This document shows positions 571 through 48,943 of a stretch of 64,000 nucleotides of DNA, piece after piece. Position 1 is the first letter of the stretch. Every line of letters starts with the position of its first letter. The notes beneath the pieces were generated by a model. The model had not been told where the DNA came from, ran no database searches, and worked only from the letters and a program-made list of their open reading frames with translations. A program made the position numbers and the translations under genes. Source of the stretch: Paludibacteraceae bacterium (GTDB taxonomy: Bacteria > Bacteroidota > Bacteroidia > Bacteroidales > Paludibacteraceae); contig JAKSNW010000004.1 of NCBI GenBank assembly GCA_024405895.1, positions 32,827 to 96,826 of the forward strand, in the 5' to 3' direction.

Positions 571-2403
571 TTAGAGAGTTTTAATGTGTTCTACTAATTC
601 ACCAACAGAGAATGGTTGGCCTTCAATCTTATTGTATTGGAGATATTCTCTTGGTACTTGTGAGCGGATATATGTTGCGAACTGACCGTTGTTCAACTCG
701 CAAACAACCACTTTCTTGTACTTCATCAACACATCCTTCGCATTCTTAGGAAGTGGGCAGATGTAGTTGAAGTGAGCGAATGCTGTTGGGTGACCTTCTG
801 CGTTGAGTTGGTTAACAGCGCTGAGCAGGTGACCATAGGTGCTGCCCCAACCTACTACCAAAGTATCTGCATCTTGGTTGCCAAAAACTTTCAACTCAGG
901 GAGTGAGTTAGCCACTTGTTGAACCTTTTGCTGACGCATTTTCACCATCTCAGCATGGTTGACACCGCTTGTTGAGATAGCTGCAGTCTTGTAGTCTTTC
1001 TCCAAGCCACCGTTGCGGTGCATGAAGCCTTCCATGCCAGGGAATGCCCAGTAACGTACTTTGGTCTCTTCGTCGCGAGTTATAGCTTTGAAGCCTTCGC
1101 GTTGAGCCTCTGTAGCGATATGAGGATGAATTTCTGGCAATTCGTTGATGTTTGGCAATTTCCAGAGAGCAGAACCGTTGCCAAGATAAGCATCGGTAAG
1201 GAGGATAACTGGAGTCATGTTCTCCAAAGCAATCTTAGAAGCCATATATGCATAGTGGAAGCAGTCGTCAGAAGTGCTTGCTGCAATAACTACAACTGGT
1301 GACTCACCGTTACGGCCGTAGAGGGCTTGGAGCAAGTCGGTCTGTTCTGTTTTTGTAGGAAGACCGGTTGAAGGACCGCCACGCATTACATCAATCAAGA
1401 CAACTGGAAGTTCAGCCATAACAGCCAAACCGAGAGCCTCAGATTTCAATGCCAAACCAGGACCAGAGGTGCTTGATACAGCCAAGTCGCCACCGAAAGC
1501 AGCACCGATAGCAGTACACATACCAGAGATTTCGTCCTCTACTTGGATAGCCTTAACACCGAGGTCCTTGCGAGCAGCAAGTTCTTGAAGAATATCAGTT
1601 GCTGGTGTGATAGGATAGCTACCAAGGAAGAGTTGACGACCAGAGCGGATACCTGCAGCTACCAAGCCGAAAGCAGTTGCTTTGTTACCGGCGATGATAG
1701 TGTAGCGACCGTGTGGGAGGTCGTCAGCCTCGCTTACATGGAAAGTTGAGATGTTGAGGTGGAGGTTATGACTGTAGTTGAAACCATCGGTCAACACCTT
1801 GGTATTTGCTTCGAGAAGCGCTGGCTTCTTAGCGAATTTGTTACCGAGGAAGTGGATGGCTTTATCCAATGGACGATTGAACAACCAGCAGATAACACCC
1901 AATGCAAACATGTTTTTGCATCTGTCAACTGATTTTGCGTCCATGCCGAAGTCTTTCAAGCTCTCGCGTGTGAGTTTGGTCAAGGCAATTGGCACGAGTT
2001 GAACAGTCTCGGAGATACCAAGTTCTGTGAATGGGTTGTCTGTTGTATAACCGGCTTTCTCCATCTCCTTCTCACCGAATGAGTCTGTGTCAAAGATGAG
2101 CACACTCATTGGTTTGAGCACTTTAGCGTTTACTTTAAGTGCTGCTGGATTCATGGCTACCAAAACATCGGCTTCATCACCAGGGGTGTGGATGCCAGTA
2201 CCAACGTGTACCTGGAATCCAGATACACCGCCTAATGTACCTTGTGGAGCACGGATTTCAGCAGGATAGTCTGGGAATGTCGCAATCTCGTTGCCGAGGA
2301 TTGCAGACAGGTTAGAGAATAGTGTACCGGTGAGCTGCATGCCATCACCAGAGTCGCCGCAGAAGCGGATCACTACGCTCTTACAATTTTCTGCTTGTTT
2401 CAT
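571..2403 (-). CDS. korA: 2-oxoglutarate/2-oxoacid:ferredoxin oxidoreductase alpha subunit
   Basis: 610-aa ORF with an ATG start. It has fused gamma/alpha POR-type domains (FCGDSGDGMQLTG..., GSYPITPATDI) and is adjacent to the beta subunit. Confidence 0.85.
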   Translation of the reverse strand: MKQAENCKSVVIRFCGDSGDGMQLTGTLFSNLSAILGNEIATFPDYPAEIRAPQGTLGGVSGFQVHVGTGIHTPGDEADVLVAMNPAALKVNAKVLKPMSVLIFDTDSFGEKEMEKAGYTTDNPFTELGISETVQLVPIALTKLTRESLKDFGMDAKSVDRCKNMFALGVICWLFNRPLDKAIHFLGNKFAKKPALLEANTKVLTDGFNYSHNLHLNISTFHVSEADDLPHGRYTIIAGNKATAFGLVAAGIRSGRQLFLGSYPITPATDILQELAARKDLGVKAIQVEDEISGMCTAIGAAFGGDLAVSSTSGPGLALKSEALGLAVMAELPVVLIDVMRGGPSTGLPTKTEQTDLLQALYGRNGESPVVVIAASTSDDCFHYAYMASKIALENMTPVILLTDAYLGNGSALWKLPNINELPEIHPHIATEAQREGFKAITRDEETKVRYWAFPGMEGFMHRNGGLEKDYKTAAISTSGVNHAEMVKMRQQKVQQVANSLPELKVFGNQDADTLVVGWGSTYGHLLSAVNQLNAEGHPTAFAHFNYICPLPKNAKDVLMKYKKVVVCELNNGQFATYIRSQVPREYLQYNKIEGQPFSVGELVEHIKTL

Positions 2404-36315: not shown

Positions 36316-37455
36316 ATGAAACCAATCCAAATGGTTGACTTGCGTACTCAGTACGAACACATTAAGACTGATATCGACGCAGGCATCCGAGAAGTAATTG
36401 ACAGCACCGCCTTCGTAAAAGGCGCAAAAGTTACCACTTTTCAGCACCATTTGGAGGAGTACTTAGGAATAAAACATGTGATTCCTGTTGGCAACGGCAC
36501 AGATGCGCTTCAAATCGCATTGATGGCGTTGGGATTAAAACCAGGTGACGAAGTCATCACACCAACATTCACATTTATTGCTACCGCAGAGGTAGTGGCG
36601 CTTTTAGGTTTGACACCTGTGGTTGTAGATGTAGATTACGAAACATTCTGCATGACACCAGAAGCCGTAGAAAAAGCCATTACGCCAAAGACTAAGGCTA
36701 TTGTGCCAGTCAACCTTTTCGGACAAAACGCAAACCTCGAAGAACTGCAGAAGATAGCAAAGGCACACAATCTTTTCTTAATTGAAGATGCCTGCCAGTC
36801 AATGGGTTCTCACTACAAATTCAACAACGGCATCACAAAGTCATCTGGATGCGTGGGAGATATAGGATGTACATCATTCTTCCCTTCAAAAAATCTCGGA
36901 TGTTACGGAGATGGCGGAGCGCTCTTTACAGACAATGATGAATTAGCTGAAAAAATTCGTATCGTAGCTAATCACGGCATGGCCGTTAGATACTATCACG
37001 ATATCGTAGGCGTCAATTCCAGATTAGACAGCATTCAAGCTGCAGTTCTGGATGCCAAACTGCCCCATTTGAACGATTACGTCAAAGCAAGACAGGCAGC
37101 GGCACAATTCTACAACGATGCATTCAAAGATGTAGAACAATTGATTACTCCTGCGACCGCTTCTTTCACCACACACGCTTTCCACCAGTATACACTGAAA
37201 GTTGTGGGTGTTGATCGAAACAAACTGCGAGATGGTTTGGCAGAACGAAAGATTCCAGCAATGATATACTACCCTGTTCCTCTTCACATGCAGAAAGCAT
37301 ACCGAGATGACAGATACAAAGCCGGCGATTTCCCAGTTGCCGAAAAACTTTGCAACTCAGTTCTCTCCTTGCCAATGCATACAGAATTAGACAACGAGCA
37401 GTTATCCTTCATCACAGAAAACACATTGGAAATTATCAGACAACTTGATAAATAA
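36316..37455 (+). CDS. DegT/DnrJ/EryC1/StrS-family sugar aminotransferase
   Basis: 379 aa with the family pattern (GNGTDALQIAL, PTFTFIATAE, TSFFPSKNLG). Confidence 0.85.
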   Translation: MKPIQMVDLRTQYEHIKTDIDAGIREVIDSTAFVKGAKVTTFQHHLEEYLGIKHVIPVGNGTDALQIALMALGLKPGDEVITPTFTFIATAEVVALLGLTPVVVDVDYETFCMTPEAVEKAITPKTKAIVPVNLFGQNANLEELQKIAKAHNLFLIEDACQSMGSHYKFNNGITKSSGCVGDIGCTSFFPSKNLGCYGDGGALFTDNDELAEKIRIVANHGMAVRYYHDIVGVNSRLDSIQAAVLDAKLPHLNDYVKARQAAAQFYNDAFKDVEQLITPATASFTTHAFHQYTLKVVGVDRNKLRDGLAERKIPAMIYYPVPLHMQKAYRDDRYKAGDFPVAEKLCNSVLSLPMHTELDNEQLSFITENTLEIIRQLDK

Positions 37456-37456
37456 T

Positions 37457-37529
<73 letters not shown>

Positions 37530-37531
37530 CG

Positions 37532-37562
37532 AAGCGGCACTAAACGGTGCCGCTTTCTTTTT
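37532..37562 (+). terminator. Rho-independent terminator after tRNA-Lys
   Basis: 9-bp stem AAGCGGCAC / GTGCCGCTT with a 6-nt loop, followed by TCTTTTT. Confidence 0.75.
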
Positions 37563-37635
37563 GTCTAAACAATGACAATACACTTGTTTTATCAAGAAAA
37601 GAAAAGACAACACAACAACAACACATCATTTGAAT

Positions 37636-38388
37636 ATGAAGAAGATTCTTCTGCTCATCCTATTTATCGGATGTGCATTTTTCGCAAGCGCAAGAGACAT
37701 TTGTCCTGGCTACCAAGGTATCGACATCTCCGATTACTCAGGCAAGGTTGTATGGACAGAAGTAGCAAAGGACACAAACATTCAGTTTGTCTATATGCTT
37801 GCCACAGTGGGCGGTGACTCAGTCAACCCAGTTTTCAAATCATACTTAAGTGGCTGCAAAAAAACACGTCTAAAAGCAGGAGCTTACCATTGCATGACAA
37901 CTACAGCCACCATTGAAGAGCAGTTTCAAAATTTTGTTAGCCACGTACACAAAGACAGTATAAAACTTGTCCCGATGATCTACGTCTCAGAATGTGAATA
38001 TTGGACCGCCGACGAAGTAATCGACAGTTTGAAAAGATTCTGCGATCTGCTTGAGGCGCATTATGGCAAGAAACCTGCCATCTACGCCCTCAATGCCATC
38101 TACAACCGTTACCTCACACCAGTTTTCAATGACTACGCCCTTTATATCATCAAATATTCAGATGTCCGTCCTATCATCCATGGTGGCAACGATGGTATCC
38201 GCATGTTATGGCAATACACCAACAAAGGCAAGATTCGTGGCTTCGAGAAACCCGTCAACCTTGTAAAACTCTGGACAGCCCGCATGCTTGAACTAAACCT
38301 CATCATCCCGAAAAAATACGTAGTCAACCACAAAGCCCCCGCCAAAAAGAAGATAACAGCAAAACACCACATACATAATAAAGGCTGA
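37636..38388 (+). CDS. glycoside hydrolase family 25 lysozyme/muramidase-like protein
   Basis: The ATG at 37636 gives MKKILLLILFIGCAFFASA (signal peptide), then GYQGIDISDYSGKVVW...FVYMLAT...AGAYH, typical of GH25. The track start at 37630 is a TTG. Confidence 0.75.
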   Translation: MKKILLLILFIGCAFFASARDICPGYQGIDISDYSGKVVWTEVAKDTNIQFVYMLATVGGDSVNPVFKSYLSGCKKTRLKAGAYHCMTTTATIEEQFQNFVSHVHKDSIKLVPMIYVSECEYWTADEVIDSLKRFCDLLEAHYGKKPAIYALNAIYNRYLTPVFNDYALYIIKYSDVRPIIHGGNDGIRMLWQYTNKGKIRGFEKPVNLVKLWTARMLELNLIIPKKYVVNHKAPAKKKITAKHHIHNKG

Positions 38389-38409
38389 CCTCGTTAGAAG
38401 TCAGCCTTT
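38380..38409. terminator. hairpin between the convergent GH25 and helicase genes; left bracket of the accessory block
   Basis: 10-bp perfect stem AAAGGCTGAC / GTCAGCCTTT with a 10-nt loop. It overlaps the GH25 stop codon, and the T tracts are weak on both strands. Confidence 0.5.
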
Positions 38410-38427
38410 GGTGTTTGTAGACGTTTA

Positions 38428-40491
38428 CTACTGATTTTTAGAAGAGACTTCACCGAAGTCCTGAAATTTGATTCGTAAAACCAAGCTAGCAACAGACTTT
38501 GGGGCTTTTTCTCGTTCTTTTTTTAACATAGCATCAAACTCGACTTCTGGCAGATCCGAGTTGAAAGCTTCTATCAAATCGTTTTCTTGCGTTGACTCAA
38601 GTGTTAGTTTCTTACGTTTCATCAACATACGCATAATATGAATACCCTTGTCATACTTAGGACGAACTTCAATAAGTTTCTGCATAAGATTGAGTCCTGG
38701 GTCCCCAATGTGCAACTCATTAAGCACTGCTACCATATAAAGGACTTTGGCATCGGGAGTTGACATTTCAAAATTTTCACCTAAAAGACAATTCACCTCA
38801 TCGGACTCATGGTAACGCTTCAACATAGCTAATGCACGAGACTTCACAAAAAGTGCCTCTGAACAATAATGTTTGCTCAGCACACGATTGGCAAAATCGA
38901 GTGCAGTCTCATACTGTCCGGCATACAGACAAAGCATAGCAGTCAAGAACTCTGTAGTCCAATGATGAGCAGAGAATAGTTCCTTCGGAACCTCTTTAAT
39001 ACAATCTATCAAATGCTCGTCACATACCACAGTATCAAGGAAACGCTTTGCCTGCTGCACTGCTTCTTTGATATCTCCTTCTTGAACTTTTTTGTTTACT
39101 AACATCAAATACTGTCTTGCAGCTTCATCGTAGTCATATTTTCTCAGAGATTCAAAGACAGCCCTACCGCTTTCTATTTCATTATTAATAAGTCGTTTAT
39201 CATTATACCCACTAGCATAAGTTATAATCTCCCTACTAGTATGAGCATATTGTGGAATAACATCATTAGACAGAAACAAACCATCTAACGAACGAACACG
39301 ACTTAAAGCCACATAGAGTTGCCCTGCAGCAAAAAGGCCACGACTTAGATCCAATGACATCTTGTCAAAAGTCATACCCTGACTTTTATGAACTGTGATA
39401 GCCCATGCCAACTTCAGGGGATATTGGGTAAAAGTTCCAGTTACCTCCTTTTTAAGTTTACGTGCTTCACGATCATACTCATAGCTTACAGATTCCCAGG
39501 ACACACTTGGCACCACATAAACATTTCCGTCGTTGATTTCAACATGTATCTCATCTTTGACAAGCTTTACAACCTTACCAAGAGTTCCATTGGCCCAACG
39601 TTTATTTGGATCGTTGCGTGTAAAAATAACCTGAGCACCGACCTTTAAACGAAGATTCAACTCTACCGGTAATTTCTTTTCATCGAACTTACCTGAAATC
39701 GTTCCCTCATAAACAAACTCCTCCAAGTCAATCTCTGCAAGATGCTGCTGGTTTATTATTTCGGCAGTCTTATTGAGAGAAGTAAGAGTAATGACCATAC
39801 CATCCTTGCTATCTGGTTGAGCCACCCGTTGATTAAGAAGCATGATATCCTCCGGGGTCACCTTATTCATGCGCACATTCTCAAGAACACGGAGAAACTT
39901 TGGATCATCGTCTTGACGATAGACTTTCCTAAATTCAATCTTTACAAGACGCATGCGTTTGAAAACATCGGCCTTATAAAAGAAAAAATCGTTAGTTTTA
40001 TAAATATCGCGAAGCAATTCGCTCTCAGCGCCTTGTCTTACTACAGGAGGTAATTGAAACATATCACCAACAAAGATCATCTGTTTTCCACCAAAAGGCT
40101 GAGAATTACGGAGTGCCTTGCGTAAAGTATAATCTATAGCATCGATGATATCACATCTCACCATCGAGACTTCATCAATGATTATGGTGTCTGCATGCAA
40201 AAGAGTAAGTATTCGTTCACGGTTCAGTCGTCCTAATGTATTTGGCACGCAAACCTCCATAGGAAGCCCAAAGAAAGAGTGAATCGTATCACCCCCAGCC
40301 AAGATGGCAGCAACTCCTGTTGGGGCCAAGGTGATGAATTGCTTGTTGACCATCTTCTGAACATTGCGCAAGAAGGTGGTCTTGCCGGTTCCCGCACGAC
40401 CCGTGAGGAAGAAACTGCTGTTGGTGTTAGCAATGAGTTCGTAAGCGAACTTTTGCATTGGGTTTTGGTTATCAATCTGCATCTGTTCCAT
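38428..40491 (-). CDS. PIF1/RecD-like SF1B DNA helicase with a C-terminal helical-repeat (TPR-like) extension
   Basis: ATG at 40491 (MEQMQIDNQ...). It has Walker A (GRAGTGKTT), Walker B (IIIDEVSMV), FVGDMFQLPPV, AITVHKSQGMTFD and LYVALSRVRS. About 240 further residues are predicted helical. Confidence 0.85.
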   Translation of the reverse strand: MEQMQIDNQNPMQKFAYELIANTNSSFFLTGRAGTGKTTFLRNVQKMVNKQFITLAPTGVAAILAGGDTIHSFFGLPMEVCVPNTLGRLNRERILTLLHADTIIIDEVSMVRCDIIDAIDYTLRKALRNSQPFGGKQMIFVGDMFQLPPVVRQGAESELLRDIYKTNDFFFYKADVFKRMRLVKIEFRKVYRQDDDPKFLRVLENVRMNKVTPEDIMLLNQRVAQPDSKDGMVITLTSLNKTAEIINQQHLAEIDLEEFVYEGTISGKFDEKKLPVELNLRLKVGAQVIFTRNDPNKRWANGTLGKVVKLVKDEIHVEINDGNVYVVPSVSWESVSYEYDREARKLKKEVTGTFTQYPLKLAWAITVHKSQGMTFDKMSLDLSRGLFAAGQLYVALSRVRSLDGLFLSNDVIPQYAHTSREIITYASGYNDKRLINNEIESGRAVFESLRKYDYDEAARQYLMLVNKKVQEGDIKEAVQQAKRFLDTVVCDEHLIDCIKEVPKELFSAHHWTTEFLTAMLCLYAGQYETALDFANRVLSKHYCSEALFVKSRALAMLKRYHESDEVNCLLGENFEMSTPDAKVLYMVAVLNELHIGDPGLNLMQKLIEVRPKYDKGIHIMRMLMKRKKLTLESTQENDLIEAFNSDLPEVEFDAMLKKEREKAPKSVASLVLRIKFQDFGEVSSKNQ

Positions 40492-40495
40492 AGTT

Positions 40496-40999
40496 TTATT
40501 GTTCAATTGCTGGAAGTATTTGAGTAAGACGAGTATTAAAGTCACTATCCAAGAAACTCTTGTAGCAGCCATTGACGATATTTTTTGCCTGTTCTTCCAG
40601 TTGCTCTTTCGGCATGGACGAGCGCTGCGTCTTCAGTATGCCCTCAAAGAAATTGCGTACCATAGTCTCCGATTCCTGGCGTATGAACGTCTCGCTGCGG
40701 AATATCTTGTCATAATCGCGTTTCTGAACAAGTTCCAGTCTGGTGCCGTTGAAGGCATAGACTTCAATGCTGTCGATGTATGTGCAGTTGTGGTAAAGTC
40801 CGACCTTCTCCACGATGACGATACGCTCGCAGAATCGCACGCCTTTATAGTAACGATGTCCGTATCCGCTTTCGTACTCGTCGCAGATGAACATCTTTTG
40901 ACCTTCGTTCCACATAGGGATGTGAGCTCTTGTGTTGCCAAATGTTGGCAAGAACTTGTCGAACAAGTCTTTGTTAATCGCTTTTGTGAGTGATGCCAT
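40496..40999 (-). CDS. hypothetical protein, paralog of the next gene upstream
   Basis: 167-aa ORF with an ATG start. Its stop is 4 nt before the helicase ATG. It shares the pattern YYK..R...R..V......G....T....I..FA.NG with the 147-aa neighbour. Confidence 0.7.
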   Translation of the reverse strand: MASLTKAINKDLFDKFLPTFGNTRAHIPMWNEGQKMFICDEYESGYGHRYYKGVRFCERIVIVEKVGLYHNCTYIDSIEVYAFNGTRLELVQKRDYDKIFRSETFIRQESETMVRNFFEGILKTQRSSMPKEQLEEQAKNIVNGCYKSFLDSDFNTRLTQILPAIEQ

Positions 41000-41056
41000 G
41001 TCTAGTCAGTTTTTTCTTGGTTAGTAACTAAGGTTGTCTGTTTTCTGTTCTACAGC

Positions 41057-41500
41057 TTATCGGAGCATCTTTTGCTGTGTCTCTTCAATCATGGCTCTTG
41101 AGAAGTCGAGCAATTGACTGTCAGCAATGACGCTTCCCATGGCCTTTGCCTGACCTGCGAGAAAGTCCTTGAGCATGATGATGCTTTGCTCCTTCGCGAA
41201 TTGCTCAGAGAAGCATCGCCAGTTGCTGCCACCCCAGAACTTTTGGGAGATGATGTTTGCCTTCTGACCGTTCCAAGCGAAGAGCGTGATACCGTTCAAG
41301 AAGGTGTGAACGTAACCTTCGCCGAGGTGGTAGTATACGGCCAATCGGTCGGAGAGACGGATTGCCTTGTAGTAGGTGTTGCCAGCTGCGCTGGTGTAAC
41401 CAAGAGTGAGAAACACGTTCTTCTCTGGGTTGTAGGTGATAGAACTGCCCGAGAGGGCTGGGAGTGCCTTAGCGGCTACGAGTGCGAGTGATGTATTCAT
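41057..41500 (-). CDS. hypothetical protein, paralog of the 167-aa gene
   Basis: 147-aa ORF with an ATG start. The core (GNTYYKAIRLSDRLAVYYHLGEGYVHTFLNGITLFAWNGQ) aligns by eye with GHRYYKGVRFCERIVIVEKVGLYHNCTYIDSIEVYAFNGT. Confidence 0.7.
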   Translation of the reverse strand: MNTSLALVAAKALPALSGSSITYNPEKNVFLTLGYTSAAGNTYYKAIRLSDRLAVYYHLGEGYVHTFLNGITLFAWNGQKANIISQKFWGGSNWRCFSEQFAKEQSIIMLKDFLAGQAKAMGSVIADSQLLDFSRAMIEETQQKMLR

Positions 41501-41607
41501 CTGCGTGTCGTTTTTGGGTTTGTTTGTTTAGCGGAATAGGCCGCCACCTCTGTTTTGAAAAAATTAAATATTGTATAAACAAATCCAGCTCTCTCGGAAT
41601 TGCGGTG

Positions 41608-41680
41608 CAAAATTACAGTGTATTTCTCCGCCGACCTAAGAATTTCCAAAGAGTATTGGTTCTTGTATATTTGGAACCAA
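41608..41680 (-). promoter_or_regulatory. promoter P3: -7 box TAATTTTG plus the upstream inverted repeat TTGGTTC-N11-GAACCAA
   Basis: The -7 box is at 41608..41615 (CAAAATTA on plus). Half-sites are at 41656..41662 and 41674..41680, within a perfect 10-bp inverted repeat GTATTGGTTC/GAACCAATAC. The near half-site starts 41 nt from the box. Confidence 0.6.
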
Positions 41681-41698
41681 TACCTTGTTCTTGGAGCA

Positions 41699-42115
41699 TT
41701 ACGCAGCGAACCGTTTCTTGCGGATCGTTTCCATGCAACGTCTTGTGCCGACAATGGAAAAACGAATTGCGGTCAGGTCCTCTGTACGACCATTTTTCTT
41801 ATGGTTTGCTTGTGCCTGGCGTTTCTCGACAATGCGTCTTAGAATGCGGTTTTGGACTTTGGTAGATTGTGATTGAGATTTGCTGTTGAGATTCAGGAAA
41901 ATCCCGTCCAGCACTTCCGTTTCAATCTTTTTGGTTGTGACATCACACACCTCTTTCGCTGATGCAGAGCGATATCTCCTGGTTTTCTCGATTCTTTCCC
42001 AATTTTGGTTGGTTTTGTGACAGGCGTTTGCTGCGCTCTGTTTCTTCTTTGCGTTGTCTACTTTTTGGTTCATTGTCTTCATTGTGTCTTTGTTTGCGTT
42101 TGACTTTTGTTTCAT
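41699..42115 (-). CDS. small, very basic hypothetical protein
   Basis: 138 aa from the ATG at 42115 (MKQKSNANKDTMKTMNQK...). It is K/R/N/Q-rich and has its own promoter P2 upstream. Coding status is uncertain. Confidence 0.4.
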   Translation of the reverse strand: MKQKSNANKDTMKTMNQKVDNAKKKQSAANACHKTNQNWERIEKTRRYRSASAKEVCDVTTKKIETEVLDGIFLNLNSKSQSQSTKVQNRILRRIVEKRQAQANHKKNGRTEDLTAIRFSIVGTRRCMETIRKKRFAA

Positions 42116-42187
42116 AGTGTCTTGATTTATTGTCCCCCACAAAAAAATGCAGCGCCAACTCCGAGGTGGTGCCGAAGTTTGACGCTG

Positions 42188-42260
42188 CAAAAGTAGTACG
42201 TTTATTGCTAATAGAACAATGTATTTGCAACTATAATGGTACCTGTAAAATTGGAACCAT
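42188..42260 (-). promoter_or_regulatory. promoter P2: -7 box TACTTTTG plus the upstream inverted repeat ATGGTAC-N11-GAACCAT
   Basis: The -7 box is at 42188..42195. Half-sites are at 42236..42242 and 42254..42260, with the same 41-nt offset. The 18-nt block TTTGACGCTGCAAAAGTA is identical to P1. Confidence 0.6.
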
Positions 42261-42274
42261 TTAAATACAGTGAA

Positions 42275-43315
42275 TTATCTAAATAATTGTGAGAATTTAA
42301 TCTTATCTTTTATTTCCCAATTTGAAGTGTTGCCATTCACATTCGAATGTTTATTGTTGTATTCTTGATACCATAGAATAACATCGCATAATTGAAGCGC
42401 ATAGCTCTTTAGCAAATATGATGTGTTACCTACATTCTTTAAATATTCTTGAAGGTGCTTGTTCTCATCATCATCATTGGACGAAGTATGAACATCAGAA
42501 CCTGCAGTATGGATCATATGAATCATGTTATCTTGTATAATCTTTGGGAAGACCGTATGATTGACTTCAACAACAGTCGTTTTGTTTTCATCTCGTCCAT
42601 ATGTAACTGGATAACCACTTAGAATAAGATTAGAACATTTTAAGTTTATTTTTTTTTGCCGCGGAAGAAGTCCTTTTTCTATCATGGATCTGAAAATATA
42701 CTCTACGATTTGACGTACTTTTTTGTATTTATCGTTATAATCTTTATTATCAAGTTCAGGAAAATGTATTTCGGATAACAAGTCAGTAAGATAAATATCA
42801 GCATCTGTGTCAATACCTAGATTTGTTATTGCTTCAAATACAGTTTTGTACATTTCATGTATCTTCAAGTCTGCTGAGCGTGATTGACGAGTTGTATACC
42901 TAATACGACGGAATAGAAGATCTCTGTCTGTATTCTTGTCATAAAATGTTTTTTCCCAATCACCATCCCATACATTTCTTGTCTCAGGAATAAGTTCTTT
43001 GATGTCGGTCTCTGCCTGACCCGATAATACATACCACGGAATAAAACGCTGCCCATGGCAGATATTGGTGATAGCGTTCGTCGCATTAATCAGAAAGCGA
43101 GTCGCATTGTCCACACTGTCTTTATGATGCTTGCATTTTGCATCAAGTATAATGGCAGACCAGCGATTGTGGTCACGTTTAAGAGCAGCTTCTGCGTCAT
43201 CCCAACAGTCAAATGCGACTAATTCAAGACCATATTTTGCTGCTTCCATTGGGAATGTTAATCTAACTTCAGGATCATCTTCAACCCATAAAACTTGTAT
43301 GTATTCTATATTCAT
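42275..43315 (-). CDS. response-regulator receiver domain fused to an unrecognised C-terminal domain
   Basis: 346 aa. The N-terminus is CheY-like (IQVLWVEDDPEVR...WSAIILDAKC...WYVLSGQ). Residues from about 140 to 346 are helical with no family I can name. Confidence 0.8.
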   Translation of the reverse strand: MNIEYIQVLWVEDDPEVRLTFPMEAAKYGLELVAFDCWDDAEAALKRDHNRWSAIILDAKCKHHKDSVDNATRFLINATNAITNICHGQRFIPWYVLSGQAETDIKELIPETRNVWDGDWEKTFYDKNTDRDLLFRRIRYTTRQSRSADLKIHEMYKTVFEAITNLGIDTDADIYLTDLLSEIHFPELDNKDYNDKYKKVRQIVEYIFRSMIEKGLLPRQKKINLKCSNLILSGYPVTYGRDENKTTVVEVNHTVFPKIIQDNMIHMIHTAGSDVHTSSNDDDENKHLQEYLKNVGNTSYLLKSYALQLCDVILWYQEYNNKHSNVNGNTSNWEIKDKIKFSQLFR

Positions 43316-43335
43316 TTTATAATATTATAAGTGTT

Positions 43336-43363
43336 AAGGCCAGAGGAAATATCCTCCGGCCTT
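43336..43363 (-). other. intercistronic hairpin between the kinase and receiver genes
   Basis: 12-bp stem AAGGCCAGAGGA / TCCTCCGGCCTT with one mismatch and a 4-nt loop. There is no good U tract on the minus strand. Confidence 0.5.
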
Positions 43364-43376
43364 TATTTTCAAAATG

Positions 43377-45932
43377 TCAAAGTGATAACACAGTATTTGT
43401 ACGTTTGAATGTTAGTACATATTTTACTGTGTAGTCCTCGTTTGGTGACGATATGATTTTCACATCTCCATCATATTCCTTCATTATAGAAACAATCTCA
43501 GAGCAACCAATGCCATTATGACCATTGATGTTGAGTGAAGTGCTGAATCCATACTCCAAAATGTTTGATGTGTCAACCCCATCTGGTATGGATTTTCCGT
43601 TGTTTTCTATGGTAAGTACCATGTCCATACCTGTTGCTTCCCAAGAGAACTTAACCTTGTAATCCTTATTTAGAGGGTTATTAAATCCATGAGCGACAGC
43701 ATTTGCAATGATGTTGTCAAAGATTCGAGTAAGAGCTCTTTTGGGGAAATAAAAAGTGTTGATAGGTTCACCTTTTCTCAAAACAAATCCACTTTTATGA
43801 AAGTCTATTGGAGAACGATTTGTAATAAAATTCTCCCAACCTGTAAGAGCGGAAAATCCCAACCAACCAGCCTTGTTTGATTGAATATATGAGTTTATGA
43901 ACTCTATAGGTTCTATGTATTCTGGTTTACCGAAATCCTCTTCTACATCGGATATCGCAGCCAGTTTAACTTGTATGCTCTTCAACCGACTTTCTAGGTA
44001 AGCAAATGCATCAGCAACAGTTAGGTCATTTATCTCAGATAGTCTGTCGCTATCATCAAGGAAACCACTTTGTCTTCTTCGGCAATTCATCAATGCATTA
44101 AACATAGACCCAAAGGAAGAAAGAGATTGTGTAAGAGCATGTTTCCTCAGTCTCACAGACTTTCGGTAATTTTCATATTGGATCACCCCTTCTTGTTTCT
44201 GTTGCTCTATGGTTTCGTAGAGTTTTTTTTGCATTCGTTCGTGTTGTTGAAGTGTGGCTTGCTTAAACACCTCCAAACTGAATTTGAATGTGTCACTCGG
44301 TGCATTAAGAATCTCGCCTGAAGACTGGGACCCTGAACGAGGAACTGCAGCTTCAACTTGTTGTTGCAGGATTGCCTCAAACTCAAGTTTCCAATTAATG
44401 TCCTCGTGATAGAGAGGAATAACTTTAATTTTGCCAAGAAGGTTGTTGTCAAACTTTCTCATGAGTTTTCCAACACTCATTGCTATAATTTGTTTAACAA
44501 CATAGTCTTCTAATAGAAGCAAGGTCGCTGATGCAACATTAGTACTTACAACTTTAAAGCAACAAATACGTGAAGAAACAGCTACACCGGTCAGGGGGAC
44601 TTCAGATAAATAACCCACCAAAAGTTTTTCACCATTGGAACACATGAAAACGCAAGGTGTTGTAACAACTGCAAAATCTTCCTTTTTTCCGCTATCGTAT
44701 ACGGGTGATAGGTCTGCAACAGAAATGTTTGCATACTTAAACGAAGTCGTTAGGTTTTTAATGGTTACAGCAGGCATAGCATCTTTTGTAGCATGAGTGT
44801 TTAGATCTGCAATAGCCAATACATTGTTCAAGCCTATAGCAAATTTAGGTTTTTCCAACAGGTAGTGCGCTGGTAAAAGTATGTCTGCATCAACCTTGTT
44901 GTAAGGTATTCTCTTGCAAATGTCCGCATTTCCCTTTATCTCAGTATGCAGAATTGCCTCCGTAAATCTTTCAACGTCAAAACGTTTGAGGTTGGATTTT
45001 ACGCCATAGGCACGAGTTGCAAACGTTGCATCAGCCATAACAACCCCAGCGAACTCGGATTCAGTCTTATTTTTGTCAAGACACATGACAAAAAATGAGC
45101 CGTTAGATGTACTGAAAATGTCAGAAGGTAACTGTACAATTGCCTCAAGAGACTTGTCTCTTACAATCATCTTTCTGAAATCTTGCTCAATTTCTCCCAT
45201 GGCTCCTAAAGTGTGCGGTGATACAATGGCAATCATTCTGCCAGTGGGTCTCAAAGCAGCATATAGGTTATGAAGTGATGAATCAAATACATCACAATGA
45301 CTAAGAATACAGTCAACAGATTCAAATGATGGGTGTGGCATCTGTAAAGATTCCGGACTCTTAGGGTATGCTATGTCATAGTCTATACCATTTGCTTGAA
45401 GTCGAATGTTACAAAAAGCCCAAATCCTAGGAGAAGAGACATTACCAGAAATTTTGCATTGCGGAAATCTTAAAGCAAGATCACCATATTCAACATAAGG
45501 AATATAAAGTTTCTCTTCTTCTTCATAATGCAATAATTTAGTCATTAAATCGCATAACTCATTAGAATATTCAAAGAGTGAAATGTCAAGCCACCGCCAT
45601 TCATCACGAAGCGAGAAAATGTGGTTGATGGTTTCTTTATGATGAGAAACAAGATATTCCAATTCTTGTTCTGTGAGTATGTTTTTCTTGAAGGAATCTA
45701 TGAAATAAATCAACTCATTAAAAAGAAGTCCTTCCTTTGGTTCTCCGTTCACAACAGACCATAGTTTGGCAAGAAGTTGTTGGTGTGGAGCATCAACAAA
45801 ACCTAAGGGTAGGTCTACTTCTGGAATCGGCGAATTCAAATCCTTGTACTCTGGTGAGGCCTCCAATTGAGCATTTACTGCGCTTACATACTTGGCTACG
45901 ATAGCCTCTACTGAAAAGTAGTTGTTTTGCAT
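43377..45932 (-). CDS. cytoplasmic histidine kinase fused to an HsdM-like (degenerate) N6-methyltransferase and a TRD-like module
   Basis: First ATG at 45932 (MQNNYF...); the track start at 45953 is a TTG. MTase-like segments: LRPTGRMIAIVSPHTLG, LEAIVQLPSDIF..FFVMCLDKNK and VVMADATFATRAYGVKSNLKRFDVERF. A TRD-like region follows, then RLRKHALTQSL (candidate phospho-His) and GHKL boxes (NIIANAVAHG, ENNGKSIP, GHNGIGCSEI). Confidence 0.8.
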   Translation of the reverse strand: MQNNYFSVEAIVAKYVSAVNAQLEASPEYKDLNSPIPEVDLPLGFVDAPHQQLLAKLWSVVNGEPKEGLLFNELIYFIDSFKKNILTEQELEYLVSHHKETINHIFSLRDEWRWLDISLFEYSNELCDLMTKLLHYEEEEKLYIPYVEYGDLALRFPQCKISGNVSSPRIWAFCNIRLQANGIDYDIAYPKSPESLQMPHPSFESVDCILSHCDVFDSSLHNLYAALRPTGRMIAIVSPHTLGAMGEIEQDFRKMIVRDKSLEAIVQLPSDIFSTSNGSFFVMCLDKNKTESEFAGVVMADATFATRAYGVKSNLKRFDVERFTEAILHTEIKGNADICKRIPYNKVDADILLPAHYLLEKPKFAIGLNNVLAIADLNTHATKDAMPAVTIKNLTTSFKYANISVADLSPVYDSGKKEDFAVVTTPCVFMCSNGEKLLVGYLSEVPLTGVAVSSRICCFKVVSTNVASATLLLLEDYVVKQIIAMSVGKLMRKFDNNLLGKIKVIPLYHEDINWKLEFEAILQQQVEAAVPRSGSQSSGEILNAPSDTFKFSLEVFKQATLQQHERMQKKLYETIEQQKQEGVIQYENYRKSVRLRKHALTQSLSSFGSMFNALMNCRRRQSGFLDDSDRLSEINDLTVADAFAYLESRLKSIQVKLAAISDVEEDFGKPEYIEPIEFINSYIQSNKAGWLGFSALTGWENFITNRSPIDFHKSGFVLRKGEPINTFYFPKRALTRIFDNIIANAVAHGFNNPLNKDYKVKFSWEATGMDMVLTIENNGKSIPDGVDTSNILEYGFSTSLNINGHNGIGCSEIVSIMKEYDGDVKIISSPNEDYTVKYVLTFKRTNTVLSL

Positions 45933-45964
45933 AGAAAAATGTTTTTGTTTCAATTTTGACGCTG

Positions 45965-46036
45965 CAAAAGTACTTTATTTTTACAGTGCTTGTAACCAAA
46001 ATTATCGATATATTGGTTCCTATATATTGGGAACCA
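45965..46036 (-). promoter_or_regulatory. promoter P1: -7 box TACTTTTG plus the upstream inverted repeat TTGGTTC-N11-GAACCA(T)
   Basis: The -7 box is at 45965..45972. Half-sites are at 46013..46019 and 46031..46037 (the last base is a mismatch). The offset from the box is 41 nt. Confidence 0.6.
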
Positions 46037-46041
46037 TTCCT

Positions 46042-47127
46042 TTAGTTTGTTTTAGGATATAAATCAGCTAATTCATGTATACGTTGCGCCATTTTGTGGC
46101 GAATGGTATCTGGTGAAATAATCTCTAATCCTGCTCCCATCTGTATTATATGCCCATAGAATTCGTTGTTCGGCTCGACATCAACCGAGAACTCTGCATA
46201 CTCTCCATCGTCATACAAGCCAAAAGGTTTCACAACATTATAACTCTGATGAAGTGGCTTTGTGTCCATTAGTTTAAATATATATAATGTTCGAGCGCGA
46301 ATAATAATATGTTCTTTCTGGACATCCTTCATGTGGCTTACGCCAACAATATCCTTGAAGAACTCATCATAGAAATGCTTTGGTGCTGGTACATATTTTA
46401 CTTTTGATCTCTCACGAGGTTTTGATTGTATTCTATCAAGAGCTATGTTATAGCCATATACCGGTTTCTTTCCTTCAGCATGACCAAACAGATGCCATCT
46501 GCCGTTATATTCCTTCAGATAGTGCGGGTGAAACAATAGCATAACAGATTCCTCCTCAAAAGGCTTATAGTTTATCTGTAGTACCTTTTTATTAGTAATC
46601 GCTTCATATATGAAAGGCAGAAATTCTATGTTTGTCAAAATACGGTCAAGACTAGCATTGATTACCAACTCTCCTTTCTGTCGCCGAGCCTTTATGTCCA
46701 ACAAATCCTGACAATCCATGAAGAAGTATTCCAACCAAGATTTTGGGAAGAAACCAGCAGAATCCTGACAGAACTTCCAATACTGTCGAAGGTTATTGAT
46801 AGCCTTAGCGTTGCGCATGTCAGCGAGAGGATCATTGTCTTTGCCTATATAACGGAAGCATTTGTTTCGGTTGTTGCCTTCCTCTTCAAAGCAATCGTTG
46901 CCTACCTTCTCGCAAATGGCTTTCTTCAATATGCCAACAGTCTTCTTAAGTTCACCATATCCTTCACAGTTAGATAGGTTGGATGGTAGTTCATTTACAG
47001 AACAACCTAATCTGTCGGCCATAATATTAGCATAAGTAAACCACCGGCGACTTATTAACCACCGATAGGTTATTCTTGAAAATTCGGCTTTATAACTGTC
47101 GCCGTCAAAGAGGTTACTACGTTGCAT
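46042..47127 (-). CDS. WYL domain-containing putative transcriptional regulator (paralog B)
   Basis: 361 aa. VLQINYKPFEEESVMLLFHPHYLKEYNGRWHLFGH...YNIALDRIQSKPR fits the WYL-domain signature, and a C-terminal WCX-like region follows. Confidence 0.8.
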   Translation of the reverse strand: MQRSNLFDGDSYKAEFSRITYRWLISRRWFTYANIMADRLGCSVNELPSNLSNCEGYGELKKTVGILKKAICEKVGNDCFEEEGNNRNKCFRYIGKDNDPLADMRNAKAINNLRQYWKFCQDSAGFFPKSWLEYFFMDCQDLLDIKARRQKGELVINASLDRILTNIEFLPFIYEAITNKKVLQINYKPFEEESVMLLFHPHYLKEYNGRWHLFGHAEGKKPVYGYNIALDRIQSKPRERSKVKYVPAPKHFYDEFFKDIVGVSHMKDVQKEHIIIRARTLYIFKLMDTKPLHQSYNVVKPFGLYDDGEYAEFSVDVEPNNEFYGHIIQMGAGLEIISPDTIRHKMAQRIHELADLYPKTN

Positions 47128-47282
47128 TTTATTAATATTCTTAGTGAGGTGTTTTTATATTTTTCTTGTATCGATGTTAGAATCTTGTTCGTTGTAGGAT
47201 TCTTCCCTTATTGGCAGGAAAACCAGACGCCAGTTTTACCATTCCCCATTAATGCTCCTTTGATTCTATTTAGATTTTCCAT
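47128..47282 (-). pseudogene. possible decayed XRE-type HTH ORF with an in-frame TAA
   Basis: Minus-strand translation from the ATG at 47282 gives MENLNRIKGALMGNGKTGVWFSCQ*GKNPTTNKILTS... . It resembles the Bacteroidota XRE N-terminus NRIK..L.E.GKT.KWLAEQLGK.P.TVSKW. The stop at 47208..47210 sits where Leu is expected. Confidence 0.3.
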
Positions 47283-47304
47283 TTTAATAAATTAATGTTG
47301 AGTG

Positions 47305-47312
47305 CAAAGATA
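47305..47312 (-). promoter_or_regulatory. -7 promoter box (TATCTTTG on the minus strand)
   Basis: CAAAGATA on plus, upstream of the XRE-like remnant and WYL gene B. Confidence 0.35.
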
Positions 47313-47361
47313 CTAAATAATATTGTAACTACAGAACGCAAATGCTATAACGTTTCTTCGA

Positions 47362-47574
47362 TTAATTCTTGTGGTGATGTGTGTTAGAGTTCTTCAAAGT
47401 TTTCTGAGATTCCTTCGTCGATAAACTCTTCGAAACGATTTCCTTTGCATCGGAAGCAGATACCATTATCAATGTGTCAATATTCTTGGAAATATCCAGT
47501 TCCACCACATCTACTACATGGTGTCAAGTGCACTATTTGAAATTCGTCTCTCTCTAATTGTTGAGTGTAGGACA
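47362..47574 (-). pseudogene. small CxxC-CxxC zinc-ribbon-like ORF interrupted by an in-frame TGA
   Basis: My translation gives MSYTQQLERDEFQIVHLTPCSRCGGTGYFQEY*HIDNGICFRCKGNRFEEFIDEGISETLKNSNTHHHKN*. The TGA is at 47476..47478. The second Cys pair lies after the stop in the same frame. Confidence 0.45.
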
Positions 47575-47642
47575 TACCATTACAAGTTAATGATACCATT
47601 ATATAGCATTGATTTTAAGACACTTTATTTCCATTCCTGATA

Positions 47643-48728
47643 TCATTTCGTGGATTTTTTTTGATAATGTTGGTGCATTCTTGCTACTTTCGTTGCTATA
47701 GTTTGACGCAGGATATCGGGCGACACGACTTCGTAGGCTTCTCCCATCTGCAACAAGCGGCCAACGAACTCCTGGTTCGGACGAACGTGCAACTTGATTT
47801 CGCCATAGCACCGACCATCGTGCTCGCCGAAGTCAACAACAGTCTCCTGAGAGTGGTGAATACGTTTGGTTGTAGTGAGATTGAACATGTACGAACTGTG
47901 AATGCGCACAACAACGTCTTCCGGCTTGCTATTCGGGGCGATGCTCACACCATAGATATCGTTAAAGAATTTCTTGTAGTAATCGGGCGAGGCCGAGACA
48001 TATTTCTTGCCATGACAATATCTCGGTTTTCCCTGGATGCGGTCGATGGCTATATTAAAGCCTTCATGAGGGGCATCAGTAACATCTTCTTCTACATAGC
48101 CGAAGAGAAACCATCGGAGGTTAAACTCTTTCAGATACTGAGGATGAAACGTCAGCGTAAGAATCTCTTCGTATTTAGCATTGTACCTGATGGTAAGCAC
48201 CTGACGGTTGACGATGGCTTCGTGCAGGAAGGGGAGCAGTTCTATGTTGGTAAGGCTGTGGTTGAGACTGCTGCTAATGGCCTCCTTTCCCTTTTCCTTT
48301 CGGTGTCTTATCTCAAGCAATTCTTTGTCGTCCTGAAAATAGTGTTCTACCCAAGAAAAAGGAAAAAATCCGGCTGAGTCGACACAGAACTGAACGAAGC
48401 GTTTGAGGTCTTCTCGCGACTTTTGCTCACGAAGAGACCTAAGCGGATCGTCTGTCGGCCCCACATATCTATACGTTTTGTTTTTGTTGTTGCCTTTTTT
48501 CTCTATGGCATTTTCACCTAATTGTTCGACCAGCCATGAAAAGGCTTTCTTGCATTCGCCATAACCGTCTCGGTTGCTAATGGGTACCAGCTCGTCACCA
48601 TCCCAATCGGGATCTTGGCGGAAGATATCAGCATAGGAGAACTCTCTACCCGACATCAGCAAATTGTAGATGATGGCGGTATATTTCGATTTTTGGCCTT
48701 TTCCTAAAAAGCAATTACTCTCTGACAT
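47643..48728 (-). CDS. WYL domain-containing putative transcriptional regulator (paralog A)
   Basis: 361 aa and collinear with paralog B over the full length (VLTIRYNAKYEEILTLTFHPQYLKEFNLRWFLFGY...FNIAIDRIQGKPR). Confidence 0.8.
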   Translation of the reverse strand: MSESNCFLGKGQKSKYTAIIYNLLMSGREFSYADIFRQDPDWDGDELVPISNRDGYGECKKAFSWLVEQLGENAIEKKGNNKNKTYRYVGPTDDPLRSLREQKSREDLKRFVQFCVDSAGFFPFSWVEHYFQDDKELLEIRHRKEKGKEAISSSLNHSLTNIELLPFLHEAIVNRQVLTIRYNAKYEEILTLTFHPQYLKEFNLRWFLFGYVEEDVTDAPHEGFNIAIDRIQGKPRYCHGKKYVSASPDYYKKFFNDIYGVSIAPNSKPEDVVVRIHSSYMFNLTTTKRIHHSQETVVDFGEHDGRCYGEIKLHVRPNQEFVGRLLQMGEAYEVVSPDILRQTIATKVARMHQHYQKKSTK

Positions 48729-48813
48729 AAGTTTTAATTATGCGTGATTCTTTTTGTAAGGCTGAATGTAGAACTTTTATTTTCTAACACTTACGTTCCA
48801 CAACTCAACTTCG

Positions 48814-48821
48814 CAAATATA
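48814..48821 (-). promoter_or_regulatory. -7 promoter box (TATATTTG on the minus strand) upstream of WYL gene A
   Basis: CAAATATA on plus, about 86 nt upstream of the ATG at 48728. Confidence 0.35.
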
Positions 48822-48886
48822 CTTATTTTTCTTAAATAGCGAAACAATTATACACAAAATTTATCTGCGTTAGACTTTTATAAAGC

Positions 48887-48918
48887 AATGGCTGACTTCG
48901 TTTCCGAGGCCAGCCATT
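48887..48918 (-). terminator. hairpin downstream of clpC-like; right bracket of the accessory block
   Basis: 14-bp imperfect stem AATGGCTGACTTCG / CGAGGCCAGCCATT with a 4-nt loop. Its first 16 nt match the 38380 hairpin at 14 of 16 positions. Confidence 0.5.
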
Positions 48919-48943
48919 GTTAGTATTAACGTTATATATTCAA

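Follow-up and report, generated by a model that had tools for sequence, protein, structure and literature searches.

The DNA considered here is a window of 64 kb (the whole stretch that was analysed) from a Paludibacteraceae metagenome-assembled genome, representing a gut Bacteroidales bacterium, and its main feature is a pair of adjacent minus-strand genes, namely gene 1 (43377..45932), labelled 'N-6 DNA methylase' by NCBI, and gene 2 (42275..43315), labelled 'hypothetical protein'. On balance, these genes probably belong to a Bacteroidales conflict (defence) cassette of the two-component type, cytoplasmic and under the control of a WYL protein, in which a sensor kinase carrying a dead restriction-modification (R-M) methylase would signal to a receiver protein. 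We infer the defence role from genomic context, as well as the trigger and the output, and an anti-phage or anti-plasmid alarm is the probable function. An earlier note on this DNA had proposed such a defence-type pair; both open reading frames (ORFs) do lie at the coordinates above on the minus strand, and all peptide motifs that it quoted are present in the translations. It missed the triad that the pair forms with a WYL gene, a palindrome-promoter module that is repeated three times, and the fact that the methylase is dead.

Gene 1 encodes a cytoplasmic sensor-kinase-like protein of 851 aa from the ATG at 45932 (its ORF reaches back to a TTG at 45953), as judged from the ORF list, Pfam, NCBIfam and a family profile. 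Its homologues were collected with HMMER in an exhaustive search against 1.84 billion representatives, which gave 716 family representatives (50% identity) at E≤1e-3 and 135 at E≤1e-30; the family profile and all motif columns are based on 61 representative sequences. From the N- to the C-terminus, gene 1 comprises a helical region, a dead HsdM-like domain, an HsdS-like target recognition domain (TRD) region, a linker, an H-box and a GHKL catalytic domain. The family proteins are mostly 750-830 aa long, and their C-terminal ~290 residues are conserved best. Neither a signal peptide nor a transmembrane helix was detected in gene 1, in line with what the earlier note had said and with its hydropathy, in which a single 19-residue window, inside the specificity-like region, exceeds 1.6; by hydropathy, both gene products are soluble.

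The methylase-like module of gene 1 is HsdM-derived and, from its motifs, predicted to be catalytically inactive. The methylase-fold domain covers approximately residues 100-350 (44883..45635, minus strand), and the family profile aligns with type I HsdM structures over the whole methylase domain (EcoR124, E 9.6e-19; 3lkd, E 1.4e-17; 7vru, E 2.3e-17). Gene 1 itself matches Pfam N6_Mtase with E 3.5e-10 at aa 225-348, a match that spans positions 171-291 of the 311 in that profile, i.e., its C-terminal half only. In the alignment of the profile with the structures, the family segment 'vyipfsglgd' faces the S-adenosylmethionine (SAM) motif 'iYDPAAGSG', and 'icdapfs' faces the catalytic 'vSNPPYS'. 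In gene 1, motif I reads IPYVEYGD where HsdM has DPxxGSG, and motif IV reads LSHCDV where HsdM has NPPF/Y. Both motifs are degenerate in all 61 representatives, none of which keeps the N/D of motif IV, (N/D)PP(F/Y). Thus, the methyltransferase core proposed in the earlier note is borne out as HsdM homology, by Pfam and by profile, whereas its activity is not: the N6_Mtase fold is present, and the SAM-binding motif I and catalytic motif IV are absent. Because these two motifs are lost, the module would be a sensor or decoy scaffold rather than a methyltransferase. Distant members of the kinase family have TPPF, CPPF or SPVF at motif IV and the clade of gene 1 has CDAS or LSHCDV; the residual TPPF/CPPF in the distant members indicates descent from an active methylase.

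A TRD region likely follows the methylase fold, as several mutually consistent, weak HsdS signals in the sequences suggest. This candidate half-HsdS region, at approximately aa 351-520 (44373..44882, minus strand), would consist of one TRD-like domain and then a helix. Methylase_S is matched with E 0.0013 in the 1013-aa homologue at locus L036 and with E 0.019 in one of 20 members, and the family profile matches Esub1 (8vsq), a half-S-subunit protein (PMC11754733), over nearly its whole chain with E 0.052. Furthermore, the L036 kinase matches the HsdS protein encoded beside it, in TRD2 and the conserved helix, with E 0.001 by BLASTP. An hhalign comparison of the TRD region with one HsdS was not significant (E 0.012, probability 3.5%), and a profile of the TRD alone found no match in the PDB and almost none in Pfam. 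The specificity-subunit cadence described in the earlier note is therefore backed by weak or indirect matches of these four kinds (Methylase_S, Esub1, BLASTP and hhalign). Between the TRD and the H-box, the close homologues P0002, P0013 and P0015-P0019 carry Glu/Ala/Gln-rich tandem repeats of variable length (e.g., QDAAFEASLEAQAREEELQD, repeated, at alignment columns ~650-800); the linker is shortest in gene 1, and its length differs even among close relatives.

The C-terminal part of gene 1 is kinase-like. A GHKL catalytic/ATP-binding domain lies at aa 730-840 (43413..43745, minus strand), with its N-box (DNIIANAVAHGF), G1 box (ENNG) and G2 box (GHNGIGCSEI) all intact, and Pfam HATPase_c, the general model of GHKL ATPases, is matched at aa 732-838 with E 3.3e-8 (34.4 bits against a gathering cut-off of 26.4), so that the complete GHKL ATPase of the earlier note is confirmed. 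Among the Pfam matches, HATPase_c_5 is also present weakly and HATPase_c_3 (the MORC type) is absent; the NCBIfam matches are weak and mainly to histidine kinases (VanS, PgtB, CreC), together with one anti-sigma-factor kinase and NifL. The N-box (DNIxxNAxxHGF), G1 (NNG) and G2 (GHxGxG) are conserved throughout the kinase family, and N744, N777, G779, G807 and G809 are invariant in the 61 representatives. Equally invariant (61/61) is the candidate for the phospho-accepting residue, His598 (codon 44139..44141, minus strand; motif VRLRKHALTQSLS), which is situated ~140 residues ahead of the N-box in the family H-box [VI]R[LM]RKHA[LI][TS]QS.

Gene 2 (346 aa) starts 61 bp past the stop codon of gene 1 and has no match in Pfam, NCBIfam or PADLOC; the earlier note had divided it into a receiver and about 200 further residues that it assigned to no kind, a division supported by structure prediction. 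The protein was modelled by AlphaFold with a 36-sequence alignment (pLDDT, the predicted local distance difference test score, 87.5). Its first 145 residues (42881..43315, minus strand) have the (beta-alpha)5 topology of a receiver (REC) domain, and the Foldseek matches in the PDB are the receivers of PorX, DctD, LuxO, PhoB and ArlR (E 6.5e-6 to 5e-3, target TM-score ~0.7), several of them in the BeF3-activated state. In the pocket of the model, E12-D13 end beta1, D58 (codon 43142..43144) ends beta3, S98 ends beta4 and K127 follows beta5; among the aligned family members, E12, D58, K127 and G99 do not vary, and only S or T occurs at position 98. The receiver-protein family comprises more than 570 clusters at 90% identity. 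According to the model, therefore, the N-terminus of gene 2 is a genuine receiver fold with a conserved Asp pocket.

The remaining ~200 residues, aa 146-346 (42275..42880, minus strand), form a C-terminal output domain, which was also modelled alone (pLDDT 91.3; predicted TM-score, pTM, 0.88) and is mostly helical with a beta-hairpin insert. N194, R201, E205, H276, D311 and W333 are invariant, and the first five of these residues suggest a catalytic or ligand site. No significant match was found in Pfam (best 0.0024, in one of 17 members), and no helix-turn-helix (HTH) or winged-helix match in Pfam, the PDB or the viral structures of BFVD. The best match among PDB sequences, to talin helical bundles (E 2e-4), and a match to a segment of PtuA were judged to be unrelated helical matches. 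A HEPN nuclease was also considered and set aside: the Foldseek matches to HepT/HEPN proteins have E values of 1.6-4.2 and a probability of at most 0.3, the R-x4-6-H motif is absent, and no conserved Arg stands 4-6 residues ahead of the invariant H276.

The genomic distribution of these proteins was surveyed from the places of distant receiver-protein homologues and by a scan of 185,579 GTDB species representatives, all annotated with our own hidden Markov models; the counts given here refer to 58 non-redundant loci (coded L001, L024 and so on). At least 55 loci exist among the species representatives, a lower bound set by the search pattern, and nearly all are from Bacteroidales of gut or rumen. 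In 56 of the 58 loci, the receiver gene comes directly after the kinase gene, with a gap of a few bases or an overlap, and a WYL(+WCX) gene is upstream of the kinase in 51. The conserved unit is thus a triad of WYL regulator, kinase and receiver protein; the gene pair described in the earlier note, which had asked for such a survey, is tightly linked amid variable surroundings, and what that description left out is the WYL gene as a third member and the operator that ties in a PIF1 helicase operon. A PIF1 helicase gene is found downstream in 24 loci and is absent from 34, two small paralogous proteins (of 147 and 167 aa in the window) occur in seven, and a complete type I R-M operon with true HsdM, HsdS and HsdR is directly downstream in seven. 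Overall, PIF1 or a type I R-M operon is immediately downstream in 31/58 loci, and the 27 with neither still keep the triad.

The flanks are variable among the loci and contain Gabija GajA, OLD, TIR, AbiEii, AbiLi, DndB, ApeA-HEPN, YhcG nuclease, Schlafen-AlbA_2 and NERD-UvrD genes, which agrees with the accessory, defence-island-like setting described earlier. Compared with the proteins of the window, the kinases are 24-34% and the receiver proteins 35-59% identical; PIF1 reaches 70% and the two small proteins 65-71% in one group of loci. The sensor half (about 25-34%) thus evolves faster than the receiver protein and much faster than PIF1. From these comparisons, the kinase pair may be the fast-evolving part of the locus, or swappable cargo in a conserved frame. 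In three loci, a second, tandem kinase-receiver pair is present with another sensor or output domain (L021, 11150..13431; L025, 3562..7478; L063, 8183..11576), which points to a wider modular superfamily. The tandem kinase of L021 (434 aa) has no methylase-like module, and the tandem pair of L063 has another kinase N-terminus and a receiver protein with a different C-terminal domain of ~150 aa. Such modularity and a fast-evolving sensor, as far as they can be judged from the sequences, would be typical of immune systems.

Two WYL genes lie upstream of the kinase. WYL1 (46042..47127, minus strand; 361 aa), directly upstream of it, is a WYL+WCX regulator candidate (Pfam WYL 7.9e-7, WCX 1.1e-6; PADLOC WYL 1.2e-18), and WYL2 (47643..48728, minus strand; 361 aa), upstream of WYL1, has the same two domains (Pfam WCX 1.4e-5, WYL 1.6e-4; PADLOC WYL PDLC01652 1.2e-17) and, in the spacer 48729..48943, its own -7 box of the TAnnTTTG type, TATATTTG. 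Pfam finds no N-terminal HTH in the WYL proteins. WYL1 is one of the ~360-aa WYL proteins, which in other loci are accompanied by GGTTCC..GGAACC palindromes.

Three operator-promoter modules of this kind, all on the minus strand, are present in the window. P_HK (45965..46036) consists of the palindrome TGGTTCC-N9-GGAACCA (46014..46036), 41 nt, and the -7 box TACTTTTG (45965..45972), which is 33 nt ahead of the ATG of gene 1; given this box and the 61-bp gap to gene 2, the shared promoter suggested in the earlier note is plausible. The second module (42188..42259), directly after the stop codon of gene 2, has a palindrome with one mismatch (42237..42259), 41 nt and again TACTTTTG (42188..42195), and has the exact 15-mer TTTTGCAGCGTCAAA in common with P_HK. 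The third (41608..41679) has its palindrome at 41657..41679, 41 nt and the -7 box TAATTTTG (41608..41615). P_HK is followed by the kinase-receiver operon, the second module by a Lys/Arg-rich ORF, and the third by the genes for the 147-aa protein, the 167-aa protein and PIF1. The modules align in register, with conservation of the palindrome and the -7 block (TAnnTTTG) only. The palindrome TGGTTC-N11-GAACCA has three copies in the 64-kb window, against 0.16 expected, and all three are inside the island. The TAnnTTTG boxes were read by eye; a sigma-70 promoter scan was uninformative (30 matches, 29.4 expected), the Bacteroidetes consensus being different.

Across the loci, the palindrome follows the type of WYL protein: GGTTCC-N9-GGAACC accompanies the ~360-aa type, TGTGAAG-N5-CTTCACA the 340-aa type and GACTTTTG...CAAAAGTC the 282-aa type. 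Further copies of the palindrome are often present past the receiver gene and ahead of PIF1; the loci in which the operator occurs again in front of PIF1 are L001, L020, L022, L031, L017, L021 and L025. Among the other loci, the exact palindrome of the window was found only in L024, and a generalised inverted-repeat search revealed the WYL-linked types. In L024 (185..6130), the palindrome TGGTTC-N11-GAACCA (754..776) accompanies a 370-aa WYL gene and an adjoining homologue of the 147-aa gene and is not upstream of that locus's own kinase, which argues that the WYL protein, rather than the receiver protein, reads the site. Between the ~370-aa WYL gene and the 147-aa gene of this locus, an unrelated 1090-aa gene takes the place of a kinase-receiver pair, which suggests a frame of the WYL...PIF1 type that accepts different cargo. 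Judged from the common operator/promoter sequences, the PIF1 operon of the window appears to be co-regulated with the kinase operon.

These features can be combined into a mechanism. The sensor would be a soluble kinase, the input of which descends from a type I R-M methyltransferase (an HsdM-like domain, one HsdS-like domain and a helix), and this dead module could recognise a target but not methylate it. A homodimer would rebuild an M2S-like DNA clamp, mimicking the M2S1 core, with its helices running into the dimerisation helices of the kinase, so that a signal could pass via the post-TRD helix into the kinase. The trigger may be DNA entering the cell or an anti-restriction protein of a phage, aimed at M2S complexes, and its binding would switch on autophosphorylation at His598. 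The phosphoryl group would then pass from His598 to Asp58 of the receiver protein, as suggested by the invariance of both residues and the linkage of the two genes, and the phosphorylated receiver would activate the helical C-terminal domain, perhaps an enzyme, for which a HEPN-like nuclease is a weakly suggested possibility. Finally, by analogy with BrxR and CapW, the WYL protein would bind the palindromic operator before both the kinase operon and the PIF1 operon.

Several observations weigh against the cassette being such a defensive phosphorelay. At the level of the kinase, the dimerisation and histidine phosphotransfer (DHp) helix proposed in the earlier note has its invariant His598, whereas the H-box regions of 10 members gave no match to any Pfam DHp family (HisKA, HisKA_2, HisKA_3, HWE_HK and His_kinase) at E≤10, and the similarity of the family profile to solved histidine kinases is weak (E 0.02). 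In view of these two results, we infer rather than observe the kinase chemistry of gene 1, and its DHp and coiled-coil/dimer geometry are likewise presumed. At the level of the partner, Pfam Response_reg and Response_reg_2 match none of the 36 receiver-protein members, and the Foldseek search with the output domain reached at best E 0.77 in the PDB and E 0.47 in BFVD, neither of them significant; because of this lack of a structural relative, it is guesswork to call the domain an effector and not a regulator or a scaffold. Neither the kinase nor the receiver protein is recognised as a system by any PADLOC model, ordinary housekeeping and metabolic genes are also frequent among the flanks, and the palindromes, which sit just past stop codons, may partly serve as terminators. 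In addition, self DNA cannot be marked by a methylase that is dead, and plain unmethylated DNA would thus be a problematic trigger with a risk of autoimmunity. This risk makes modified or otherwise foreign DNA, or a role as an anti-restriction decoy, more attractive.

In the decoy version of the cassette, which we consider a tentative and rather unlikely refinement, the dead HsdM/half-HsdS module would imitate the type I core, and anti-restriction proteins of phages or plasmids, such as DNA mimics of the Ocr/ArdA type, would bind the dimer and turn on the kinase, so that the phosphorylated receiver protein would release a new kind of effector domain. This idea is compatible with, though not proven by, the type I R-M operon directly downstream in seven loci.

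Among the alternatives to a defence cassette, a purely regulatory two-component system, in which the kinase senses DNA or its methylation state and the output domain regulates the PIF1 or R-M operon, survives best, although it too seems to us improbable. Most response regulators are transcription factors, the same operator stands before the kinase and PIF1 operons, and one of these two kinds of operon is immediately downstream in the 31 loci mentioned above; moreover, in Ambrosia an R-M-like pair is joined with a regulatory kinase/receiver pair (10.1101/2025.09.30.679545). However, an output domain with no HTH or winged-helix match in Pfam, the PDB or BFVD is hard to reconcile with this role, and its invariant R, E, H and D would resemble an active site more than a DNA-reading surface. 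The operator also tracks the WYL type rather than the receiver-protein clade, being absent upstream of the kinase of L024, and the triad persists in the 27 loci in which neither candidate target operon is downstream.

A second alternative, which we regard as quite improbable, dispenses with the phosphorelay: the GHKL domain would be an ATPase clamp of the MORC/paraMORC or MutL type on a degenerate type I-like protein, and gene 2 a pseudo-receiver adaptor. The missing DHp match and the weak similarity to solved kinases suit this scheme, as does the fact that GHKL ATPases of the paraMORC type are known R-M partners (PMC8011034). However, the Pfam result speaks against a clamp, with HATPase_c above its cut-off, HATPase_c_5 weak and HATPase_c_3 missing, and the NCBIfam matches are mainly to histidine kinases. 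An invariant His in the context R-K-H-A-L-[TS]-Q-S, at the spacing from the N-box given above, further argues against a clamp. Pseudo-receivers usually lose the Asp/Ser-Thr/Lys pocket, and the partner of gene 1 keeps the whole of it. Finally, a housekeeping or mobile-element maintenance module in variable regions (e.g., replication/repair control via PIF1) would account for the many housekeeping neighbours and for PIF1 and two small proteins (65-71%) being far more conserved than the kinase pair, but it is the least probable reading of all, because the distribution is sporadic and limited to Bacteroidales, the flanks differ in almost every locus, 34 of the 58 loci have no PIF1, known defence genes repeatedly adjoin the cassette, and the receiver protein is absent from the viral contigs of IMG/VR and the plasmids of PLSDB. 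This absence also leaves a phage- or plasmid-borne origin unsupported.

The defence cassette proposed here has similarities to known systems as well as differences. Detocs is a defensive two-component system composed of the DtcA kinase, the DtcB buffer receiver and the DtcC receiver-PNP effector (10.1101/2023.01.24.525353). As in Detocs, a cytoplasmic sensor kinase is coupled to a receiver in which a non-canonical domain replaces the DNA-binding output, the output is swapped in a modular manner, and the setting is a defence island. Unlike Detocs, the cassette senses through a dead HsdM/HsdS-like module instead of tetratricopeptide repeats (TPRs), has no PNP ATP-nucleosidase domain in its output, has a near-constant WYL member and is confined to Bacteroidales. 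Neither protein matches a PADLOC Detocs model, no stand-alone receiver gene is present in the window or the related loci, and since every membership feature tested failed, identity with Detocs is rejected.

The nearest validated precedent found is Ambrosia, composed of the XRE regulator AbrR, the N6-adenine methylase AbrA, the HATPase AbrB, the REC-winged-HTH protein AbrC and the HNH protein AbrD; its methylase is predicted to be active, mutation of conserved residues abolishes defence, and AbrB and AbrC have been proposed to be regulatory (10.1101/2025.09.30.679545). R-M-derived parts, a kinase/receiver pair and a dedicated regulator are common to Ambrosia and the cassette. However, the parts of Ambrosia are separate, whereas in the cassette the methylase is fused to the kinase and dead; the output is not a winged HTH, there is no HNH nuclease, and the regulator is of the WYL and not the XRE type. 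Ambrosia occurs in Gammaproteobacteria and the cassette in Bacteroidales. The five-gene set of Ambrosia is accordingly not what is found here, with no separate methylase, HNH or winged-HTH component and with a WYL regulator in place of AbrR.

A further relative in kind is the pair HEF_HK/Response_reg_2 (PF19191/PF19192), described near R-M systems by Bellieny-Rabelo et al. 2021 (PMC8011034), which is also a tightly linked, R-M-enriched pair of a soluble kinase-like protein and a divergent receiver-like protein, in some cases in Bacteroides. The HEF_HK kinases differ in having HATPase_c_3 (paraMORC-like) and no methylase module, and they occur mainly with type II and C5-cytosine methylases. PF19191 and PF19192 match none of gene 1, gene 2, 36 receiver homologues and 10 H-box regions, so this identity is rejected too. 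The similarity to Ronin (HsdM, HsdS and RonA) and to the PrrC/EcoprrI guard, in which an M/S sensor for anti-restriction proteins elicits an abortive response (10.1101/2023.04.06.535777), is conceptual: an M/S-like module is used as a sensor with no need for its methylation activity. Ronin has separate canonical HsdM and HsdS proteins and releases a 61-aa membrane toxin, whereas the M/S-like module of the cassette is one polypeptide fused to a kinase, and a phosphorylated receiver protein would be its output.

In the case of BrxR, a WYL regulator, the inverted repeats that it binds are situated at two promoters within one defence island (PMC9122601). Like BrxR and CapW, the WYL protein of the cassette has the WYL and WCX domains, stands at the head of a putative defence operon and is accompanied by candidate palindromic operators at more than one island promoter; it differs in having no N-terminal HTH by Pfam and in the position of the palindrome, which is upstream of the -33 region and not between promoter and gene. 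The kinase and receiver, for their part, have what is expected of a two-component system in the GHKL domain with its N, G1 and G2 boxes and in the residues of the receiver pocket. CapK/CapS (PMC13373217), in which a GHKL kinase acts on a STAS-domain repressor, has an unrelated architecture. As the earlier note had supposed, no paper on a methylase-like module fused to a histidine kinase was found in our literature search, although that note had left out Ambrosia and the HEF_HK/Response_reg_2 pairs as precedents. A figure legend on DefensePredictor names a predicted HATPase/REC system. Overall, the cassette is apparently undescribed and apparently has a distinct sensor design and output fold among defence-associated two-component systems.

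If this reading is correct, bacterial immune signalling would use a disabled R-M recognition module joined to a histidine kinase as a sensor, i.e., a direct cytoplasmic sensor of nucleic acids or anti-restriction proteins that feeds a phosphorelay, and the output domain would be a new effector fold for the defence repertoire. If the decoy version is correct, the cassette would be a phosphorelay 'anti-anti-restriction' guard that backs type I R-M and, in bacteria, the first decoy immunity coupled to a kinase. Members of the family are numerous in Bacteroidales of gut and rumen; in this group, type I R-M systems are common and, to our knowledge, few defence systems have been experimentally tested. 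In addition, the link between WYL, operator and PIF1 offers a tractable regulon for the coordination of several operons by a WYL protein.

The remaining genes of the island, in which both WYL+WCX proteins, a PIF1/RecD-type helicase of superfamily 1B (SF1B) and a tRNA-Lys are present as the earlier note had listed, are also on the minus strand, apart from the tRNA. The ORF list contains an uncertain Lys/Arg/Asn-rich gene (41699..42190) of 163 aa from a TTG or 138 aa from the first ATG. The 147-aa protein (41057..41500) and the 167-aa protein (40496..40999) have no Pfam, NCBIfam or PADLOC family; they form a single BLAST cluster, and by eye both have the motif YYK[GA][VI]R. The former is 65-71% identical in loci with a 70%-identical PIF1, the latter is grouped with it, and both travel with PIF1 in Prevotellaceae loci. 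The PIF1-family SF1B (PIF1/RecD-type) helicase (38428..40572; Pfam PIF1 9.8e-33) has a TPR-like C-terminal region. As listed, its ORF has 714 aa and runs 77 nt into the 167-aa gene, and its homologues have 681-689 aa; translation therefore probably starts with the ATG at 40491 (MEQMQID...), 5 nt past the stop codon of the 167-aa gene, which gives ~687 aa.

Between the two WYL genes, a small zinc-ribbon-like ORF (47385..47563, minus strand; MSYTQQLERDEFQIVHLTPCSRCGGTGYFQEY*HIDNGICFRCKGNRFEEFIDEGISENFEEL) has an in-frame TGA between two CxxC pairs and is a candidate for a pseudogene or for read-through. In L036 (4159..4374), L037, L042, L054 and L060, a conserved 71-aa gene of the XRE/Cro HTH type precedes the WYL gene; the WYL protein has 343 aa in L054 and 282 aa in the other four, and type I R-M is downstream in all but L054. 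A HAD-like protein of 441-563 aa and a DprA-like (DNA_processg_A) protein follow the triad in L005, L030 and L035 and may be a linked module. Large proteins with no Pfam match, in families of ~910-940 aa and ~980-1160 aa, recur after the receiver gene or the R-M operon (L011, 11099..13924, L036, L037 and L049; L009, 7193..10672, and L060), and in several related loci the receiver gene is followed by short ORFs (76-102 aa) that belong to no cluster.

With respect to composition, G+C is 36-39% across 42-48 kb of the window and 41-46% in the adjoining 2-kb bins. A search of 37000-49500 with Rfam, including the 770-bp spacer, matched the tRNA alone; this is tRNA-Lys(CTT) at 37457..37530 on the plus strand, ~0.9 kb past the PIF1 stop codon, and a strong hairpin is present after that stop codon at 38380..38409.

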